Assembly (NCBI GenBank): GCA_002011125.2
Contig: MTMF02000009.1
Location: forward strand, 1,672,989 to 1,736,988
Direction: 5' to 3'
Length of the DNA stretch: 64,000 nt
DNA from: Candidatus Hydrothermarchaeum profundi
GTDB taxonomy: Archaea; Hydrothermarchaeota; Hydrothermarchaeia; Hydrothermarchaeales; Hydrothermarchaeaceae
A program made the translations under genes and the position numbers. Below the pieces are notes generated by a model, which searched no databases, was not told the DNA's origin, and saw only the letters and a program-made list of their open reading frames with translations. Positions 11,439 through 21,070 of this stretch are shown here, in pieces; position 1 is the first letter of the stretch, and each line of letters begins with the position of its first letter.

Positions 11439-11702
11439 TCAAGATTTTTTAGGAGGCTCATAGATGAGGTCTCTTAAAAGAACGATATCTCCTATAGACT
11501 TTATTGCCTTATAGGGTACTATTACTCCTTTTTTCCCTTCGGCACCTATCTTCTTGGAGAAATCGCTATCAAGCTTTGATAATATGATGCCCAGAACTTT
11601 TCCCGTTTCCGGATCTATAGAAACATCTTCCAATACGCCTACATGTTTGCCTCCTTCCGTGAATACTTCCAATCCGCTCATCTTGGTAAGTCGAGAAACC
11701 AT
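11439..11702 (-). CDS. PRC-barrel domain protein (CdpB-like)
   Basis: GLEVFTEGGKHVGVLEDVSID...VPYKAIKSIGDIVLL; GGTGA SD upstream. Confidence 0.85.
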   Translation of the reverse strand: MVSRLTKMSGLEVFTEGGKHVGVLEDVSIDPETGKVLGIILSKLDSDFSKKIGAEGKKGVIVPYKAIKSIGDIVLLRDLIYEPPKKS

Positions 11703-11859: not shown

Positions 11860-12525
11860 ATGACCACAAAAAAAGAAATAAGCCATATTAAAAACATTTC
11901 ACCCAGATTAAACGATAGGAAGGCTATCACGCTAATTAGCCTTATGAAAAATGGGAGAATTTCGGACACGGAACTAATGGTGCACCTCGGATTAAAAAGT
12001 GCAAATTCGGCTTCGTACTATAGGAAAGATTTAGAAAAACAGGGAATAATTGAGGGATATACTACCTCAGTAAATTGGACAAAGATAGGATACCCTACGG
12101 ACTTTGTTATTTTAATAGAAGGGGGAAGTATGGAAGCGAATTTCAATATAGAGAAGGAGATAATAACATCTCTAGAAGATTACGCCAAGAAAAAAGGAGA
12201 TATTCTTATCTTGCCGAGCGGCAATGGTAGAGTCCTGATCAAAAATATAACTACCTGTTTCGGAGAAAGACCCATGACAATAATTCAGGGCCATGCCTCA
12301 TCAGAGCACGATGCCCTAATATACTTCAGATATTATGTTGCGGAGAAATTCCAAAATGCAAAAACAACTTTCTTGCTGGTGAAGGGTAAAAGTATAGATA
12401 ACCATTTTATCAAAAAGGATTACATAAATTTCATGAAAGGCTCCTTTACTGAAGAGGATACCCTAGAATTGCCCGAGGAGTTCAAAAAACATTTTCCATC
12501 ATTAGCAGCAAAACCAAAGAAATAG
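11860..12525 (+). CDS. Lrp/AsnC-family transcriptional regulator with divergent C-terminal domain
   Basis: LMKNGRISDTEL...LEKQGIIEGYTTSVNWTKIGYP is the Lrp HTH-linker pattern. Confidence 0.8.
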   Translation: MTTKKEISHIKNISPRLNDRKAITLISLMKNGRISDTELMVHLGLKSANSASYYRKDLEKQGIIEGYTTSVNWTKIGYPTDFVILIEGGSMEANFNIEKEIITSLEDYAKKKGDILILPSGNGRVLIKNITTCFGERPMTIIQGHASSEHDALIYFRYYVAEKFQNAKTTFLLVKGKSIDNHFIKKDYINFMKGSFTEEDTLELPEEFKKHFPSLAAKPKK

Positions 12526-13242
12526 TTACTCCAACTCTAATTCTTCTCTTCCAAAAACCCTAAATCTTCCATTTGAATACAAAATAGGGAAATATTGCGT
12601 ATCATGATTTGTGCTCCTCATTTTCACTATACCGATATATCTTTCAAGAGCACTAAGCACATCCCCTCTCTTTTGGAAATCTAAATGTATTATTCCATCA
12701 GCTAGGAAATCCTCCACTCCATACTGGCTATATACCGGTCTCTCTGGAGACATTTCAGATATCAAAAAACAGGTTATCCCTGTGGTTTTCAAATCCTTAA
12801 AAAGGTAGTAGAGTTCCCTTCTTGGATCTCTAATAGTTGTTAAAGAGTAAAGAGCGTTAAGGGAATCTATAACCAATAAGTCATATTCCTGTCCTTTTTT
12901 AGCTTCCTCAATATATCCCCTAATCAACCGTATCCAATTGTCCCCGTATTTCTTTTCCATAGCTGCTTGAACCTTCCTAAAATCTACTAGCAGGATATTT
13001 CTGTGATCAGACATTCCGAGTCTCCTCATCTGTTGCATAAGACTCTCTATCTCCTGTTCTAGGGTTATATAGACGGACTTTAGATCTTCATTAACTGCAT
13101 TATTGTAAAGGATACTATATGCAAGAGAAGATTTCATAGTGCCTGCAGTGCCGCAGATTAACGTAATACTCCCCTTTGGAATTCCTCCTTCGATATGTCT
13201 GTCTAAACCTTCAACATAAGTTCTTATTCTAGGCACATCCAT
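12526..13242 (-). CDS. KaiC/RAD55-family single-domain ATPase
   Basis: TYVEGLDRHIEGGIPKG, Walker A variant GTAGTMKS, YITLEQ, Walker B LLVIDSL, ADGIIHL, KMRST; ATG at 13242 has GTGA upstream. Confidence 0.9.
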   Translation of the reverse strand: MDVPRIRTYVEGLDRHIEGGIPKGSITLICGTAGTMKSSLAYSILYNNAVNEDLKSVYITLEQEIESLMQQMRRLGMSDHRNILLVDFRKVQAAMEKKYGDNWIRLIRGYIEEAKKGQEYDLLVIDSLNALYSLTTIRDPRRELYYLFKDLKTTGITCFLISEMSPERPVYSQYGVEDFLADGIIHLDFQKRGDVLSALERYIGIVKMRSTNHDTQYFPILYSNGRFRVFGREELELE

Positions 13243-13409: not shown

Positions 13410-14867
13410 ATGGAAAGGATTAGTAAATATCGTAGAGGTAAAAGTTTGACTAATATTCAAAAGGAATTAATAAAAATTGTAGGACCAAAAAATGTCTTTT
13501 CTGAAAAAATTCAGAGATTTTGCTATCGTTTCGGGAATGTGATTGAGTATCGGTTTGATACTCCCTCCTTTTTACCAGATTTTGTGGTAAGACCTGTTTC
13601 AACACAGCAAGTAGCATCTATCCTGAAACTTGCAAACAAGCATCAAATCCCTGTCGTAGTATGGGGAGGTGGTACCGATTTTAGCGGAGCCAATAGTCCG
13701 ATTAAAAACGGGATTGTAATAGATATGAAAGAGTTTAATGAAATACAAGTTGATGTGAAGAGACGGTGTGTTACAGCCGGAAGCGGAGCTATTTTGAAGA
13801 AGATAGGGGAGGAGTGTGAAAATAAAGGATTTTTATTCGAGCATGAACTAACAAGCCAGCCAGGAGCAACTCTAGGAGGTGCGATTGCCACAAACTCATT
13901 TGGCTATAGGTCCGGAAAATATGGGTCCATTAGGAACCTTATACTAGGGATTGAAGTCGTCTTGCCTACAGGGGAGATAATAAAAACTAAGCCCTTGTTC
14001 AAAACATCCATGGGGTATGACCTCGTATCGCTCTTAGTTGGCAGTGAAGGAACATTAGGAGTGATAACTCAGGCTACATTGAAGCTTAGTCCTTTGCCAG
14101 AAAAAAGGGAACTCTATACCTTTGTATTCAGCAGGATAAATCATGCAATAGAAGCTGCTGAAAAAGTATACAACACTATCCCCCCAGATTTATTTGAAAT
14201 TTTTGAAATGAGTTTTTTGGGATATGTAGAGAATACTCAAGAATTTATAGAAGAGCATATTGGTATTCCAAAAAACCTGCTGGACTTAAGTGATGGATTC
14301 CCGGCTATCTTGACTGTAGGATATGAAGGTAAAAAAGAAGTAGTAAATAGTAAGATAAATATTTTGAAAGACTTAATAACCGATGGATTAAGTATTCAAA
14401 ACGAAGGTTACTATGAGAACAGGTTTATTAGGTATCATAAAGAGTTCAGAAAAATCCTCAATCTTCTGCCAAACATTTCATTAAAAGATTACAGCTATGC
14501 TACCTTTGACTTCAGCATCCCTGAAACAAAGTTATTGGAATTTAATGATACTCTTCACGCAATATCTAAAGAATATTCAAATACATATCTATTGGATGTA
14601 AACCTCTATTCAGCGCTTTCTGTCGTGGGTATAGATTTCTTTGTGCCAAATAATAAAGAAGTTTACAAGAATTTGGCTGAGGAAATATTTAGAGTAGTAT
14701 TAGAGCTAGGCGGATCTTTATCTTCTGTCCATGGAATAGGAACTCGGTTAATACCTCACCTTAGAAAAGATTTAGGTGATCCATACGTAGACTTAATGAA
14801 TAGAATAAAGAAAGCCTTTGATCCTTTGAATATCTTAAACCCTGGTAAGCTGGGTAACGTGATGTAA
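13410..14867 (+). CDS. FAD-binding oxidoreductase (VAO/PCMH, GlcD/ADPS-like), atypical
   Basis: WGGGTDFSG, ATLGGAIATN, GSEGTLGVIT, HGIG, FDPLNILNPGK. Confidence 0.88.
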   Translation: MERISKYRRGKSLTNIQKELIKIVGPKNVFSEKIQRFCYRFGNVIEYRFDTPSFLPDFVVRPVSTQQVASILKLANKHQIPVVVWGGGTDFSGANSPIKNGIVIDMKEFNEIQVDVKRRCVTAGSGAILKKIGEECENKGFLFEHELTSQPGATLGGAIATNSFGYRSGKYGSIRNLILGIEVVLPTGEIIKTKPLFKTSMGYDLVSLLVGSEGTLGVITQATLKLSPLPEKRELYTFVFSRINHAIEAAEKVYNTIPPDLFEIFEMSFLGYVENTQEFIEEHIGIPKNLLDLSDGFPAILTVGYEGKKEVVNSKINILKDLITDGLSIQNEGYYENRFIRYHKEFRKILNLLPNISLKDYSYATFDFSIPETKLLEFNDTLHAISKEYSNTYLLDVNLYSALSVVGIDFFVPNNKEVYKNLAEEIFRVVLELGGSLSSVHGIGTRLIPHLRKDLGDPYVDLMNRIKKAFDPLNILNPGKLGNVM

Positions 14868-14868
14868 A

Positions 14869-15216
14869 ATGGAGGAAAACACCGAACTCATACAACTCTG
14901 TTTGAATACCCGATGCAATTACTGTAGATCTGCGTGTAGAGATTTTAAGAGAAGAAGAATGGAGTTCGGATCTCCAAGAGAAAAAATAGAGATAGTTTAC
15001 GAAGCTCTTAATGGTAGATTGAACCCTAAGGAAGCCTCCGATAATCTTTTCCATTGTATTTCTTGTAAAAAATGCTCATCTGCTTGCCCTTACAACATTG
15101 ATACTTCAAAAATTTTATGGGATAATAGAAGATTATTTGAAAATTGTCCTAGAAAGTATTTCTTCATACTAGCCTATGTCTTCTCCAAGCTCTTCAGAAT
15201 AAGCTACCGGGGCTAA
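14869..15216 (+). CDS. Small 4Fe-4S dicluster protein (GlcF N-terminal-like, no CCG domains)
   Basis: CLNTRCNYCRSAC...SPRE...CISCKKCSSACP. Confidence 0.7.
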   Translation: MEENTELIQLCLNTRCNYCRSACRDFKRRRMEFGSPREKIEIVYEALNGRLNPKEASDNLFHCISCKKCSSACPYNIDTSKILWDNRRLFENCPRKYFFILAYVFSKLFRISYRG

Positions 15217-16329
15217 TATACACCTCGCAGGCAAGTGCCAAGGCTTCTCGCCGTCTAATTTTATATCATTGTCTAAAGATTTGGCCAAAAGTACACCTTT
15301 ATCGAATGTCGGCTCCATGAAACCTAGTTTAGAAAACGCGTTTCTTCTCCATTTAATTCTTCTATCAAAGACACTAGCCACAAAACTATAATTAGGCTTA
15401 GAATCTATGATGTATAAGAGCATATTAGCAGGCACCGTAGAATTTTGAAACTCTCCTACAACCGCAAACTCATCAGGGGTATATCCGTAAAATATTTGCC
15501 AATTATCACTATAAACCGGTTTTCCAAACATCCAGCCGCTCCATGCAGAGATAATGTAGGTTAGTACCCCAATAATCTCGCTGTCTTTCTCAGCTACAAT
15601 ACCTTGGATATTATTATTTTTAATTATTTTACCAAATTTACTTAAAGTATAATTTGCGGCAATTTCGAAATCTTTATTAGTGTTCTCGAGGAGTCTAACA
15701 ATATCCGAGTAATCTGATTTTTCCATAGACCTTAAATGTATATTTTCAGGGAGCCTTCCGACAAACAAACTTTTAGCCTTATTGTAGCCTCTAAGTAACT
15801 TGAAAATTAATCTCCAATACAAATTCGCTTCAGCTCGCCAAAAATAAGGGATCGTTCCTTTTAAGTTAATCCCACTAGAAAACCAATTTACTCCCTTTAT
15901 CCACTTAAATCCAAGCCGCTTGAATAGTTCTTGATTTCTCAAAAAATTCTCCTCAAACTCCCAGCCACATAAGATGCTTACATCTTGGCATCTTAATTCT
16001 GCACTTATATCCGAAAATAAAAGTTCAAATATCCTATTATAATTTTTTCTATAATGTGGGTGAATACAATTGTCTACAAAAGAAGCTATTCTAACGCTCT
16101 CTCCTTTAACTAAAGCATCCAGTAGTATAACCCCTAATGAAGCTATAATTTTATCATCTCTTTCTATTCCTCGTACTACATAGTCGCCAGACATCTTGTA
16201 TCTAAGGATCCACTCATTAGGCACCCTCACATAATCAAATTCCTTTTTATCATAGAATATAGACTCATAAAATAGTTTCAAGAATTCGGCATCTCTTTCT
16301 CGAGAATACTCCACAATTTTGAAACCCAT
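15169..16329 (-). CDS. Tandem GNAT-fold acyltransferase-like protein
   Basis: Two GNAT-like units (IIASLGV..FVDNCIHPHYR..FKRLGF; LRSMEKSD..EIIGVL..FSKLGF). Confidence 0.7.
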   Translation of the reverse strand: MGFKIVEYSRERDAEFLKLFYESIFYDKKEFDYVRVPNEWILRYKMSGDYVVRGIERDDKIIASLGVILLDALVKGESVRIASFVDNCIHPHYRKNYNRIFELLFSDISAELRCQDVSILCGWEFEENFLRNQELFKRLGFKWIKGVNWFSSGINLKGTIPYFWRAEANLYWRLIFKLLRGYNKAKSLFVGRLPENIHLRSMEKSDYSDIVRLLENTNKDFEIAANYTLSKFGKIIKNNNIQGIVAEKDSEIIGVLTYIISAWSGWMFGKPVYSDNWQIFYGYTPDEFAVVGEFQNSTVPANMLLYIIDSKPNYSFVASVFDRRIKWRRNAFSKLGFMEPTFDKGVLLAKSLDNDIKLDGEKPWHLPARCILAPVAYSEELGEDIG

Positions 16330-16409: not shown

Positions 16410-19388
16410 ATGAAACTCGAAAACTTCCTTATAACTCCTTTAACAATTCTTTTTTTAATTCATAGTGTAACTGCCTACTCATCTTATTATTCAGACATAC
16501 CTTTTTTTATAAAGTTCTATGTGTTAGTTTTGGGTTTGCACCATGCCTCAATGATAGCTTTCCTGTGGGAAATAAAAGGAGTTTCTAAATCGAAAGTGTG
16601 GGATAATATATTCAACGCAAATATATGCGGCATTTTTATTACATTCTCTTTAGCTTTGCTTTTGTATAACCTTTACTTAAATTCTATAAACTGGCGGCAT
16701 CTATTAGTCATCTGTGCGGGATTAGATATAGTAGCTCACATTTTTGCCGATATTACTCTATATTATCTTGTAAAGCCTATTATTAAGGAGAAGCTTAATT
16801 TATTTAAATACAGGTATTTAGCCCTTTACGCAGGAATCACAGGGTCTTTATTCTTCTTGATCATATATAATTTAAAAATAAAATTTCCTACCGTCTCTAC
16901 TGATCTACCTTTTAGCATTCTAGGTTTACTTTTTGCTTTTACAGTTTTTTACTTTGTATATTCCCCTATTATAATTTCTGAGGCATATAGAGAAATAGGT
17001 TTTGTTAGGAAACCATTCTCCCTTGCTGGAATAGGAGCTTTAACATTTGTTATCTCTTCTATATTAGTTTTATATGTGACCTTCTACCATATTGAAACTA
17101 CTATTAGACATCAGCTTTTCTACAATATAGCGATTTATGTTCTGGCATCAATTTTCTCATTGATATTCTATACTAAGTTTATAGTAGAGTATCCATCACT
17201 TCTAGAGAGAAAATGGAAAGCATTAATGCCTTTTGATTTTATTAAAATCGCTACAACTTTAGCTCTATTTTTCTTGGCTGTGTCTCTTTATTTTTCAGCT
17301 GAAAAATATTTGGAATTGCCCTTTAGGCTAGAAATATTATTGCCGGTTCTTTTAGGTTTACTAGCGATTTTTATAACCGTAATTTATATTCTTTCATACA
17401 CAAATAGCATTTATAATAAAAGCAAGCTTGTTTATTGGATATATCTAAAAGCTGGTTTATTTATTCATGTAGCATCTACTCTATATGTGCTAGCACTAAT
17501 TATTCTTTTATGGAAGACCCTGAACAATATAGGTAAATACCTATCATCCTTCTTTATTGTTCTTGTATTTTCATTTTACATTTCTTATGCAATGGATCTG
17601 CGCACAATTTTGAAAAATCTGGGGATAAGAACTCGTCTTACTAAAGCTGAAATCACAGGTAATGCTGTGTTGCTCTATGCTATATTTTTAATAATTTTCT
17701 TCTTTATCCTTTTAACCTATGGGAAAACTTCACTAATTTTATATGATATCCAGATAGAATCCTACCCCTTTCTATTATTTTCAATAGCCGTTTTCTTGGT
17801 TGCATATATAAGTTACCTAAGCGTCACGCACAAGGGATTTGAAGAAATGATGAAAAAAAACATTTGGAGCGAACTAACCTATATATCCGGATTTTTAACT
17901 TTTATTACAGTCTATTTATTATATACCTCAGAAAAAAATGTCCAACTTTTCCTATTTCACGATTTCTTTTTTATAAGCTATTTCGTGATGCTTTTAATCG
18001 AAATTGCGTCAATAAGAACGTTAGGATATCATCCGATACATAAAAAAGGTGAAAAAAGCCTGATGTATCTTTTCTACCATCATACGAGCGCATATTTCAG
18101 GGTAGATTACCTTGAGAAAAAATGGAAAAAAATTGTAGACACATACAAGCATCTAGACAGTAAACTATCTACGATCAAGTACAATCCTGCCAAGAGGTCT
18201 TTTGACCTATCAGAACTAAATGAAAAAGCTAGGACTGTTGTTGCCGTTGCAATGTTGCTTGAAATGTACCAGGATAGGAAGGATTTAGGTAAAGTTACAC
18301 CCCTCGGAGAACGCGATATAAAGAGAGAAATAAAAGAAACCTTGAAAGAAAAGGTACTACTCCTCCCCGCAGATTTAAGATCTAAATTTGATGAAGACGA
18401 ATACTATCCTCTTCTCTATGAGTATGCGATTAATACTATAATCGAAAAAATCAAGCCATTTGTCCCTGTTGAAGAACATCAAGAAATTTTTAACAAACTA
18501 AAAAGGGTAGATGATTTCTTCGAATCATTAGAACTCCGGGATTCCAAAATCAATTTTAAGACTGAAAAAAGAATTTCCAGAAGAAACTTTATAAGATATT
18601 TAAAAATGTATTTGCGTTCCATAGAGGAGAGGTTCCCTTTTGAAGATAAGTTACTGTATGAATCTGTAAAAGAGTTAGTGAATAGAGACCTCTCTAATTA
18701 CGGTTTTTCTGTAGTAGATTTGTTAGACATAGTGCCTTCAGGTATCAATCCTGTAGACCGGATTAGTGGCGGACTAAAAAAAGGTACTATGACCCTTCTA
18801 ATATCTGAAGAAAATAAGTATAAGAACGAATTTCTAGAATCCTTCATACGTCAAGGATTAAAAGACGGTGATTGTAATATTTATGCAACATCAAAACTAC
18901 CCTCACAAGAGATATATAATAATCTTTTAATGGATTTTGAAATTAAAAAAACCACTCTAATAGACCTCTATCAGTCGATATATACAACATCACCAGTATC
19001 TAGCATCAGAGAGGAACCTCATAAAATAATTATACCCCCCACAATCATCTCATGGAAAATTAGCTTAACAAAAGCGGTTAAAAAATATTCAAAAGAAGAA
19101 CATAAAAGAATAGTCATAGACGTATTTAATGATCTCCTGAGGTACTATAACCAAGATGAGATAACCAAAGTTTTATATCGACAGCTTGAGGGACTTCGAA
19201 AGTGGAATTGTACTGTAATAATAGTTCTTTATCCTAAAACATTTCAAGAAAATAAATATGAAGAAATTAAAAAATGGTTTGATAACGTTCTCATTTTAGT
19301 AGGGCGAGAAAAAACTTACTTAAATTTTGATAAACTTCATGGAGGATTGCCAAAAAAGAGGTCAATACCTCTTGAGGAACAGTGGTGA
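16410..19388 (+). CDS. Multi-pass membrane protein with C-terminal degenerate KaiC/RAD55-like domain
   Basis: About 530 aa of successive TM helices, a helical linker, then VPSGINPVDRISGGLKKGTMTLL (KaiC N-terminus), broken Walker A, IVID. Confidence 0.75.
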   Translation: MKLENFLITPLTILFLIHSVTAYSSYYSDIPFFIKFYVLVLGLHHASMIAFLWEIKGVSKSKVWDNIFNANICGIFITFSLALLLYNLYLNSINWRHLLVICAGLDIVAHIFADITLYYLVKPIIKEKLNLFKYRYLALYAGITGSLFFLIIYNLKIKFPTVSTDLPFSILGLLFAFTVFYFVYSPIIISEAYREIGFVRKPFSLAGIGALTFVISSILVLYVTFYHIETTIRHQLFYNIAIYVLASIFSLIFYTKFIVEYPSLLERKWKALMPFDFIKIATTLALFFLAVSLYFSAEKYLELPFRLEILLPVLLGLLAIFITVIYILSYTNSIYNKSKLVYWIYLKAGLFIHVASTLYVLALIILLWKTLNNIGKYLSSFFIVLVFSFYISYAMDLRTILKNLGIRTRLTKAEITGNAVLLYAIFLIIFFFILLTYGKTSLILYDIQIESYPFLLFSIAVFLVAYISYLSVTHKGFEEMMKKNIWSELTYISGFLTFITVYLLYTSEKNVQLFLFHDFFFISYFVMLLIEIASIRTLGYHPIHKKGEKSLMYLFYHHTSAYFRVDYLEKKWKKIVDTYKHLDSKLSTIKYNPAKRSFDLSELNEKARTVVAVAMLLEMYQDRKDLGKVTPLGERDIKREIKETLKEKVLLLPADLRSKFDEDEYYPLLYEYAINTIIEKIKPFVPVEEHQEIFNKLKRVDDFFESLELRDSKINFKTEKRISRRNFIRYLKMYLRSIEERFPFEDKLLYESVKELVNRDLSNYGFSVVDLLDIVPSGINPVDRISGGLKKGTMTLLISEENKYKNEFLESFIRQGLKDGDCNIYATSKLPSQEIYNNLLMDFEIKKTTLIDLYQSIYTTSPVSSIREEPHKIIIPPTIISWKISLTKAVKKYSKEEHKRIVIDVFNDLLRYYNQDEITKVLYRQLEGLRKWNCTVIIVLYPKTFQENKYEEIKKWFDNVLILVGREKTYLNFDKLHGGLPKKRSIPLEEQW

Positions 19389-19454: not shown

Positions 19455-20120
19455 ATGAACCATTTCATTTCAATAGCGAGTACTATTCTAGCTTTTGGAA
19501 TAATAGGTGGTGGTCTAAAGTTTATTGACGATGCCTTCGATGAAGGAATATTTAATAAAAAGCTAGCTAGTATTACTGCAGTAATACTAGTAATATTGTG
19601 GATTTTTTTATCTCTGAAAGATCCTTACTCCGGGACAATATTATTTTCAATTTTAGCAGGGGTTCTTTTCTCTGGAAAAATAGATAATACAGTATTTATT
19701 GCAAGTACTCTTGCACTCGCTTTGACTACGCTGATTATGGGAGCTACGATATTTTGGATACCGCTGATTATTTTAACTATCTTCGGAGTTATTGATGAAC
19801 TAGGCAATGACTATACGGACATCCACAAAACTCGGCGGCTGATAAAATTTTTTTTTGAACACAGATGCACACTAAAACTGGGTATTCTTGCGATTTGTTT
19901 AACTACATTTTTTCCTATAGAATATTTTCTAATTTTCTTAGCTTTTGATATCTCATATGACTTTGTAGGAATGTATAGTAAAAGAATTAGCAATATAGCA
20001 GAGCCTAAAGTTACAATATTCCTGTGTAATGAACTTCCTTTCCAAATACCTGTAGAACGTGTATGTTTTATGAAATCTGGATTACGCCTTGAGGATAAAA
20101 GCATAAGAATTATTGTATAA
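19455..20120 (+). CDS. Uncharacterised membrane protein with Asp-rich motifs
   Basis: About 7 hydrophobic segments; KFIDDAFDE, GKIDN, VIDELGND. Confidence 0.7.
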   Translation: MNHFISIASTILAFGIIGGGLKFIDDAFDEGIFNKKLASITAVILVILWIFLSLKDPYSGTILFSILAGVLFSGKIDNTVFIASTLALALTTLIMGATIFWIPLIILTIFGVIDELGNDYTDIHKTRRLIKFFFEHRCTLKLGILAICLTTFFPIEYFLIFLAFDISYDFVGMYSKRISNIAEPKVTIFLCNELPFQIPVERVCFMKSGLRLEDKSIRIIV

Positions 20121-20639
20121 ATAATATACTTCATTAGGGAAAAAATTTTTTAATAAAAAAAAGAATTTTAAACCATAATAGATAAATTTTTTAGAATTTT
20201 TATTTGTTAATTAAATTAAAAATTTACTTTATTATAAATTTATAATATTATTAAAAAATTTTATTTCTTTAATTATTTTATTAATAATTTAATGATAAAA
20301 TAAAAAATTAAATTTATTTCTATGTTTTATAAATCCTATATCCTAAAAGTGAGAAACAGTTCACATTAAAGAGGTTTATATCCCGAGCTAAATTACTCTT
20401 TAGTCCTTCAAAGATCGTAACTTTGAAAAGATAGTTAATAGCAGAATAGATTGGCCATATATTAAAAAAAATATTATTATTTTATTTTTTAAGGTTAATA
20501 TAAGTCTATTTTTGTTTTGATTTTTTATAGAATATTTATCTATTTTTTTCAAAAAATATTATAGAAATAGTATAGTAAATATTATTTTCTATAAATTTTC
20601 TTTTTTAATTTAACAATATTTCATTAGGAGGTGAAGTAA
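20121..20639. promoter_or_regulatory. Long, extremely AT-rich intergenic region with a more GC-balanced core of three inverted repeats
   Basis: Nearly pure A/T flanks; core 20349-20427; ends in AGGAGGTGA SD. Confidence 0.5.
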
Positions 20640-20765
20640 ATGGAGCAAGTATCCCCTCTACAAAGCGATGTTAAACGCCTTTACGAACTATTAGGGGTGG
20701 GGAAAAGAGGGGAAATAAAACACGCAAAGTCCGGTGGGGGAAGAGATGAAAAAAAGTATTTCTAA
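20640..20765 (+). CDS. Micro-ORF 1, 41 aa (MEQVSPLQSDVKRLYELLGVGKRGEIKHAKSGGGRDEKKYF)
   Basis: Translated by hand; strong SD AGGAGGTGA just upstream of the ATG; below the ORF-track cutoff. Confidence 0.6.
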   Translation: MEQVSPLQSDVKRLYELLGVGKRGEIKHAKSGGGRDEKKYF

Positions 20766-20892
20766 AAAAAGCTCAAGTCATATTATCCTCTGCCCAGATG
20801 AAACAAAAAAGAGAGTAAATAACTACGTCATCGTAGAAATAGAGGGAACCGGTTTTGTAGTAATAAAACAAAAAATAGACGCGGAGCTATGA
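20746..20892 (+). CDS. Micro-ORF 2, 48 aa (MKKSISKKSSSHIILCPDETKKRVNNYVIVEIEGTGFVVIKQKIDAEL)
   Basis: Overlaps the ORF1 end; GGTGGGG upstream; protein-like beta-strand pattern. Confidence 0.5.
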   Translation: MKKSISKKSSSHIILCPDETKKRVNNYVIVEIEGTGFVVIKQKIDAEL

Positions 20893-20893
20893 T

Positions 20894-21070
20894 ATGGAGG
20901 AGATTATTGAAAGAAAAAAACTTCTAGAGAAATATAGGATAAAAGAACCTGACGAAACACAGATATACTTAATACTCAGAGACTTTGTTTCAGACCCTCT
21001 TCTAGACACCGAATTCAAGAGAAAATTTCCCTCATTAACATCTATCCTGAAGCAGAGAAATAAAGGATAA
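20894..21070 (+). CDS. Micro-ORF 3, 58 aa (MEEIIERKKLLEKYRIKEPDETQIYLILRDFVSDPLLDTEFKRKFPSLTSILKQRNKG)
   Basis: ATG 1 nt after the ORF2 stop, GGAG upstream; shares LxxEFKxxFPSL with the Lrp-like protein. Confidence 0.6.
   Translation: MEEIIERKKLLEKYRIKEPDETQIYLILRDFVSDPLLDTEFKRKFPSLTSILKQRNKG

Follow-up and report, generated by a model that had tools for sequence, protein, structure and literature searches.

KaiC-like ATPases have been proposed as signalling hubs in archaea, reportedly by Makarova, Galperin and Koonin in mBio in 2017. A KaiC-centred archaeal signalling network has been proposed (cited in PMC5847659), and the locus described here resembles it in that the genes for a single-domain KaiC, an HTH regulator and a membrane protein that has a KaiC-like domain lie close together; it differs in a putative short docking motif and a putatively competing microprotein, neither of which is mentioned in the part of PMC5847659 available to us. 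The regulator shares with the Lrp/AsnC (feast-famine) family a wHTH and an alpha/beta effector domain, but whereas typical members have ~150 residues, this one has 221, adds a long insertion and, unlike them, has its best-conserved window in a 45-residue tail. MicroProteins have been described for plants and animals (PMC6003976), in the accessible part of that article as small proteins built of one interaction element of a larger regulator. The product of the short gene ORF3 is alike in this respect, as its sequence shares an element with the regulator, to which we ascribe an interaction role; unlike the plant and animal cases it is archaeal, has two parts and shares a 25-residue segment, not a whole domain, and its interference is putative.

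The ORF3 module is real and apparently undescribed, and the Lrp-KaiC gene pair may already stand in the supplements of the 2017 mBio article. Full-text literature searches returned nothing on DUF2226 and nothing joining Hydrothermarchaeota and KaiC; those on DUF2095 gave only unrelated listings on thymidylate metabolism, nothing was found on the twelve-residue motif discussed below (motif B), and the accessible part of PMC6393860 held nothing relevant.

Gene order at the locus

The window, by which we mean the whole 64,000-nucleotide stretch analysed, contains the following features:

11860..12525, + strand: Lrp/AsnC-fold regulator, 221 aa, with a C-terminal extension of ~45 residues (Foldseek, orthologues)
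12424..12504, + strand: I189-L215 in the tail of the Lrp; motif B occupies 12469-12504 (motif in 21/21 rows)
12526..13242 (longest ORF to 13290), - strand: single-domain KaiC-family ATPase, tail-to-tail with the Lrp gene (PF06745, 145 bits)
16410..19388, + strand: 992-aa membrane protein with a C-terminal KaiC-like domain, a pseudo-KaiC candidate (PF06745, 37 bits at 775-968)
19455..20120, + strand: 221-aa membrane protein of no family (no Pfam or NCBIfam match)
20640..20765, + strand: ORF1, 41 aa, with a strong ribosome-binding site (AGGAGGTGA)
20746..20892, + strand: ORF2, 48-aa conserved microprotein (17/37 relatives)
20894..21070, + strand: ORF3 microprotein, 58 aa, a free-standing module

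Synteny was followed in 20 fetched regions, with 12 genomes that have the 992-aa gene inspected. The 992-aa protein, whose match to DUF835 falls below the cut-off, has matches in 17 of the 37 relatives and lies on a contig in common with KaiC in G006 and G009. The 221-aa gene stands in tandem with the 992-aa gene in five of the 12 genomes and is convergent with it in one; it directly follows the 992-aa gene in G006, G009, G026, G032 and G033. One contig of G006 carries Lrp, KaiC, an oxidoreductase and the 992-aa gene, and another the 992-aa gene, the 221-aa gene and ORF2, while KaiC, the oxidoreductase and the 992-aa gene are found together in G009. The enzyme slot of the block appears to be exchangeable, since the FAD oxidase, ferredoxin and GNAT genes at 13410-16329 of the window occupy the place, upstream of the 992-aa gene, where relatives have geranylgeranyl-reductase-like genes. 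Synteny supports a unit of Lrp, KaiC and membrane sensor. An earlier note on this DNA had seen in the ORF3 motif the strongest internal sign of the block being a single system; that claim is not supported, because ORF3 is found in 0 of the 37 relatives and the block is partly conserved in G006 and G009 without it, so that gene order in these two genomes is the better evidence.

Several further observations concern the flanks of the block. An 87-aa PRC-barrel gene (11439-11702, - strand) is divergent from the Lrp gene and was not seen adjoining Lrp in the relatives' loci displayed. The very AT-rich spacer of ~520 bases that precedes ORF1 (20121-20639) has low-complexity repeats only, and a promoter scan, made with a model that is not right for an archaeon, gave 9 sigma-70-type sites in it versus 6.1 +/- 2.6 in shuffles. 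ORF1 has no homologue in the 37 relatives. Relatives of ORF2 lie behind ftsZ in six of the eight loci inspected; in G006 and G014 they follow the 221-aa gene, and no ORF3 comes after them. The ORF2 family (L155-L160) is unnamed, about 50-70 aa long, has the pattern NY.LIPIEG.GFVVIK and matches nothing in Pfam or NCBIfam; its loci behind ftsZ have close by a conserved winged-helix-like gene of 75-85 aa, and a second copy in G000 (C9:1480240-1480413) is directly behind ftsZ. The Lrp-KaiC pair of G006 and G014 (L161, L170) is within 3 kb of PadR-like, inositol-phosphate-synthase-like and small winged-helix genes, which flank ftsZ; ftsZ is on the G006 contig, and the other genes were labelled by eye.

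ORF3 and its homologues

ORF3, whose start lies one base beyond the stop codon of ORF2, is the last of a three-gene run with a strong ribosome-binding site at its front. Two features are distinguished within it:

20906..20989, + strand: part A of ORF3 (residues 5-32), a DUF2226-type peptide, R.ELL.KY.I.EP....I..I...F (Pfam PF09987)
20963..21037, + strand: I24-L48, the segment that recurs in the Lrp tail, with motif B at its end (21002-21037)

Its codon score is 0.122 versus a gene mean of 0.115, a value exceeded by only 1.6% of 1,943 shadow ORFs. Besides ORF3 itself, a HMMER search of 1.84 billion representatives retrieved three full-length relatives with E-values of 9e-6 to 2e-4, and codon use and homologues together favour a coding ORF3. 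Two of the relatives, P0023 (50 aa) and P0025 (56 aa), appear as free microproteins whose methionine start lies directly ahead of the first motif, and the third, P0024 (191 aa), has a Roadblock domain ahead of the complete ORF3 module and a C-terminal end, LPEEFKKRFPSL, that is identical to the Lrp consensus at 12 of 12 positions. The module seems to be portable, since P0024 bears it whole on a Roadblock domain and ends as the Lrp consensus does. All three are singletons on short contigs (2298, 1488 and 1014 bases) and could for that reason be partial gene calls. Seven residues (E40, F41, K42, F45, P46, S47 and L48) are invariant across the four rows of the family.

Four helices are predicted in ORF3 (residues 2-13, 21-32, 39-44 and 46-56), and its AF2 model has a pLDDT of 78 and a pTM of 0.42. 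Residues 6-44 match positions 150-185 of the Pfam PF09987 (DUF2226) profile with 23 bits, the gathering cut-off being 22, and P0023-P0025 pass this model too (24-28 bits). In the PDB the module has no match under E 0.18 by sequence and none under E 4 by fold; NCBIfam gave zero matches for ORF3, its homologues, ORF1 and ORF2; the ESM Atlas held no usable match to ORF3 and matched P0024 in the Roadblock domain only; and the sole candidate of a word-based search with ORF3 alone as query was ORF3 itself. No whole ORF3 module appears to be covered by solved structures or curated families.

The full module was found in none of the 37 other genomes of the phylum, among them all nine other Lrp carriers, which therefore run the Lrp-KaiC pair without ORF3, and a profile of the four rows found it in none of 400 archaeal genomes. 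Of 124 candidates in a further search with this profile four passed, the only new one being a protein with part A alone; in scans of collections 2 of 302 metagenome, 1 of 159 genome and 0 of 195 viral-contig candidate stretches passed. The two of these that were inspected, L072 and L074, are 630-aa transketolase-like proteins and were rejected as chance matches. ORF3 is an occasional accessory, a lineage-specific addition to the end of the block and not a core part of it.

A conserved tail on the Lrp regulator

The 221-aa regulator has the Lrp fold, with an N-terminal wHTH and a C-terminal alpha/beta effector domain in its AlphaFold2 model, the best Foldseek matches of which are Lrp/AsnC structures without exception; among curated models HTH_24 matches weakly and the Lrp models of NCBIfam all stay below cut-off. 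Twenty orthologues at 55-73% identity were retained from 281 candidates, those carrying organism names being proteins of Hydrothermarchaeota or Euryarchaeota. The pattern [LI]P.EF[KR][KR][RH]FPS[LI] is present in all 21 rows, and motif B ranks first among the 206 twelve-column windows of the alignment (0.94 versus a mean of 0.75, with 0.89-0.90 for the HTH windows). The tail that bears it lies outside the Lrp fold, solved Lrp structures have no such tail, and from about residue 176 the AlphaFold2 monomer model gives it a pLDDT of 45-58, with helices at 186-195 and 206-211. The tail is strongly conserved yet poorly ordered, which suggests that it is a putative docking peptide folding on a partner. 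Four more distant Lrp paralogues were inspected; none has FPSL and none has KaiC inside 1.5 kb, three adjoin a UbiA-type gene, and their C-termini show a looser F-x-[KH]-R-F-x-P.

The segment shared by ORF3 and the Lrp tail

The earlier note had reported that a peptide in ORF3 matches the Lrp tail at 8 of 12 residues near the C-terminus of both, and that synonymous codons in the shared residues point to conservation at the protein level. The match is there: LDTEFKRKFPSL (ORF3, 21002-21037) and LPEEFKKHFPSL (Lrp, 12469-12504) are identical at 8/12 residues and end 10 and 6 residues, respectively, before the C-terminus. At four of the eight shared positions the codons differ (CTA/TTG, GAA/GAG, AAG/AAA and CCC/CCA), and at the other four they are the same. 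The two copies agree in 23 of 36 bases, which rules out a recent DNA duplication as the origin of the match.

Among the 4,371,232 six-frame 12-mers of the genome searched (G000; 2.19 Mb, 19 contigs), none besides the Lrp copy reaches 8/12 with the ORF3 peptide, and 0.056 windows at this level are expected by chance in the proteome. This uniqueness overstates the surprise, since any short ORF could match any neighbour. In a comparison of 927 intergenic ORFs of 30-80 aa with every gene up to 10 kb away (15,381 pairs), 11 had a best match of exactly 8/12, versus 12, 7, 8, 6 and 6 of 927 in five shuffles, although among the 11 the ORF3/Lrp pair stands alone in that neither copy is more than 10 residues from the C-terminus. 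Chance thus gives such a match to about 1% of short ORFs, and 8/12 alone is a lead and not a result; this rate is what speaks for the view that a non-coding ORF resembles a protein tail by accident. That view is now highly improbable and largely refuted, as it has to contend with three full-length homologues, coding-like codons, a Pfam match above cut-off and conservation in both families. It is this conservation of the motif, in 21/21 Lrp rows and 4/4 rows of the ORF3 family, that takes the match out of the range of chance and bears out the protein-level conservation proposed in the note.

Profiles built without sequences of G000 connect the two families in both directions. With one made from 20 foreign Lrp tails, ORF3 ranks first after Lrp itself among 13,754 ORFs of G000, at E-values of 0.017, 0.0032 and 0.0015 for three tail lengths, and a profile from two foreign microproteins retrieves the Lrp tail from the same ORFs at E 0.0085. 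Alignment of the ORF3 module and the Lrp tail with hhalign gives a probability of 96.1 over 36 columns. The common segment has ~25 residues, I-x2-h-x3-F-x5-7-L-x2-EF[KR]x2FPSL, and with four module rows and eight Lrp rows 8 of 29 gap-free columns are invariant for the same residue in both families, including the S and L past the proline and two upstream positions. The segment of ORF3 and that of the Lrp tail are very probably one conserved element.

Part A and the DUF2226 network

The first half of ORF3, which the earlier note had missed, is a DUF2226 peptide. DUF2226 (PF09987) is an uncharacterised archaeal family whose proteins carry part A after their N-terminal domain; ORF3, in contrast, is a 40-residue piece with neither the N-terminal nor the C-terminal domain, and since it covers positions 150-185 of the 252 in the profile it is a fragment-type relative and not a full member. 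The four-row profile finds matches in 24 of the 37 other genomes of the phylum (E 0.001) and in 39 of the 400 archaeal genomes (E 1e-5), and the part-A carriers looked at comprise DUF2226 proteins from many archaea, HEAT-repeat proteins and others. Where ORF3 has EFK, the seven DUF2226 rows aligned continue from part A into a helix L.E[FL]K[KE], with no FPSL. Part of the likeness of ORF3 is therefore inherited from DUF2226, the EFK helix aligning with the third DUF2226 helix, and FPSL is, as judged from the alignment, a probable addition by the ORF3 family to a DUF2226-type peptide.

Part A is also seen in other settings. G000 has two carriers besides ORF3, a 240-aa protein (C9:13029-13751, + strand) and a 39-aa ORF limited to part A (C9:1082656-1082775, - strand). 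Proteins of 490-690 aa from several Hydrothermarchaeota (L031, L032, L036, L071) begin with a DUF2226-like part, carry the part-A peptide and extend into long HEAT-repeat tails, and a 274-aa protein (L061:1273-2097) has the peptide in two tandem copies.

The third DUF2226 helix bears on an alternative in which homology or convergence leaves no shared partner: ORF3 would be an excised DUF2226 fragment, and F-x-x-x-F-P-x-L a favourable helix-break sequence that serves each of three families in its own folding or self-packing. The position of the EFK helix in place of that helix agrees with this, as do the free part-A fragments that lack FPSL (P0026, 37 aa, and the 39-aa ORF at C9:1082656 in G000), the looser C-termini of the distant Lrp paralogues and the weak EF[RK]R[RK]FP matches inside unrelated enzymes. 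Eight same-residue invariants in both families and the 12/12 identity of P0024 with the Lrp consensus are, however, hard to reconcile with it, and one would not expect a folding cap to surpass the DNA-binding helix in conservation. We regard this explanation as unlikely.

The genes around part A could point to a different partner. A DUF2226 gene is flanked by SepF and a MinD-like ATPase at L131:726-2707, part-A genes adjoin Roadblock genes at L024, L041, L053, L055 and L064, and at L060 one precedes a MinD-like gene; the remaining part-A loci display no SepF, Roadblock or MinD-like neighbours. The closest relatives of the P0024 Roadblock domain are in operons with a second Roadblock-like gene, to which G024 and G012 add a MinD-like ATPase. 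The shared segment might then dock not on KaiC but on the DUF2226/Roadblock/MinD-like network, with ORF3 as a free modulator of that network and the Lrp having acquired or retained the segment so that the network can recruit it. These neighbourhoods, the DUF2226 nature of part A, the fusion of the module to a Roadblock domain with such relatives, the coupling of ORF3 to ORF2, whose family is mostly behind ftsZ, and a DUF2095 gene with a similar motif near a small GTPase gene in G000 all fit this account. It nevertheless explains part A better than FPSL, which ordinary DUF2226 proteins lack, and leaves the Lrp-KaiC gene pair without a reason; we hold it to be unlikely.

Separately, L182 and L183 show operons in which a gene labelled by eye as V4R-like accompanies a MinD-like ATPase gene and a pair of Roadblock-like genes.

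Motif B outside the two families

DUF2095 (PF09868), another uncharacterised archaeal family, starts with a looser motif B, EEF[KR][KR][RK][FY]P[NH]LA[KR]E, and the shared-segment profile finds these proteins at E 1.6e-4 to 0.05 per genome. Unlike ORF3 and the Lrp tail, they have the motif at the N-terminus, with N or H for S, and lack the upstream helix. With E-values up to 10 admitted, the Pfam model of DUF2095 still matches none of ORF3, P0023, P0025 and the two Lrp tails compared, and the DUF2095 motif may resemble motif B with no common origin. A DUF2095 protein with the motif is also present in G024, where no orthologue of KaiC was found. In the 187 loci fetched, with 9,129 ORFs, the sole carriers of [ED]F[KR][KR][KRH][FY]P.L are Lrp tails, DUF2095-type proteins and ORF3, a count that gives no background rate because the loci were selected. 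That part A is a DUF2226 peptide and that DUF2095 has a similar motif widens the list of possible partners.

In G000 a DUF2095-like gene with a weak motif B (C9:906821-909252) lies two genes upstream of a small GTPase and two small conserved genes, a cluster that may resemble the haloarchaeal oapABC/arvABC cluster.

KaiC as the leading candidate partner

The ATPase encoded tail-to-tail with the Lrp belongs to the KaiC family by its PF06745 match of 145 bits and its Walker A lysine, with G..G.MKSS invariant in 18 rows. It is one of eight KaiC-like proteins that the analysis turned up in G000. A motif-bearing Lrp is present in 10 of the 38 genomes of the phylum, and all 10 have a KaiC orthologue; the two genes are convergent and adjoining in G000 and in seven of the nine other carriers and are on separate contigs in G009 and G017. 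Eleven of the 38 genomes have a KaiC orthologue and no motif-bearing Lrp. Co-occurrence and adjacency make KaiC the leading candidate partner of motif B, as far as genome comparison can indicate, although the carrier genomes are kin, so that the pairing counts as one evolutionary event, not ten, and the linkage, coming from one clade, is not independent evidence for docking on KaiC.

ORF3 is predicted to be a microprotein that consists wholly of a free-standing, two-part protein-interaction module. Its second part (helix, linker and EFKxxFPSL) would be the one that the Lrp also bears, as an appended tail. That segment would dock onto the surface of a partner, and ORF3 and the Lrp tail probably, if by no wide margin of confidence, have the same one. 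The partner would most likely be KaiC, the ATPase whose gene meets that of the Lrp tail-to-tail, an identification that we make tentatively over all the evidence. ORF3 would then fill the same site on KaiC as the Lrp tail and would either compete the Lrp off KaiC or tie KaiC, through part A, to Roadblock, DUF2226 or MinD-like proteins. We give this reading, in which the shared segment is a putative KaiC docking peptide and ORF3 competes for its site or bridges it via part A, a probability of about 0.35. The earlier note had likewise suggested a docking motif, with KaiC as an example of a partner and the microprotein as a possible decoy, and its interpretation is partly supported. Its most far-reaching form, in which ORF3 would be a two-headed adaptor that joins a KaiC docking copy to a docking peptide for DUF2226, Roadblock or MinD-like proteins and couples the circuit of sensor, KaiC and transcription to the cell-division or polarity machinery, is quite unlikely.

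The Lrp itself could also be the target. Lrp/AsnC proteins oligomerise, and the tail might be an element of self-association or auto-inhibition, with ORF3 a dominant-negative microProtein that binds the regulator. The poor order of the tail in the monomer model is compatible with this. A parallel exists in plants and animals, where small proteins are known that reproduce a single interaction domain found in a larger regulator, as described in the accessible part of PMC6003976. Such self-binding would leave the Roadblock fusion, part A and DUF2095 unexplained, and we judge it distinctly unlikely.

Implications

How archaeal KaiC-like ATPases pass signals to outputs has been proposed, not worked out. 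The reach of the present finding is limited, as ORF3 is a rare gene of an uncultured lineage and its partner only a candidate. Motif B, present on a KaiC-linked regulator, a free microprotein and a Roadblock fusion, is nonetheless a concrete and cheap target for peptide-binding work, and independently of KaiC the two portable peptides would be first handles on the uncharacterised families DUF2226 and DUF2095. Were the adaptor reading true, the KaiC network of archaea would gain in these two short motifs its first defined docking code, one put to use again on Lrp, Roadblock and DUF2095 proteins.
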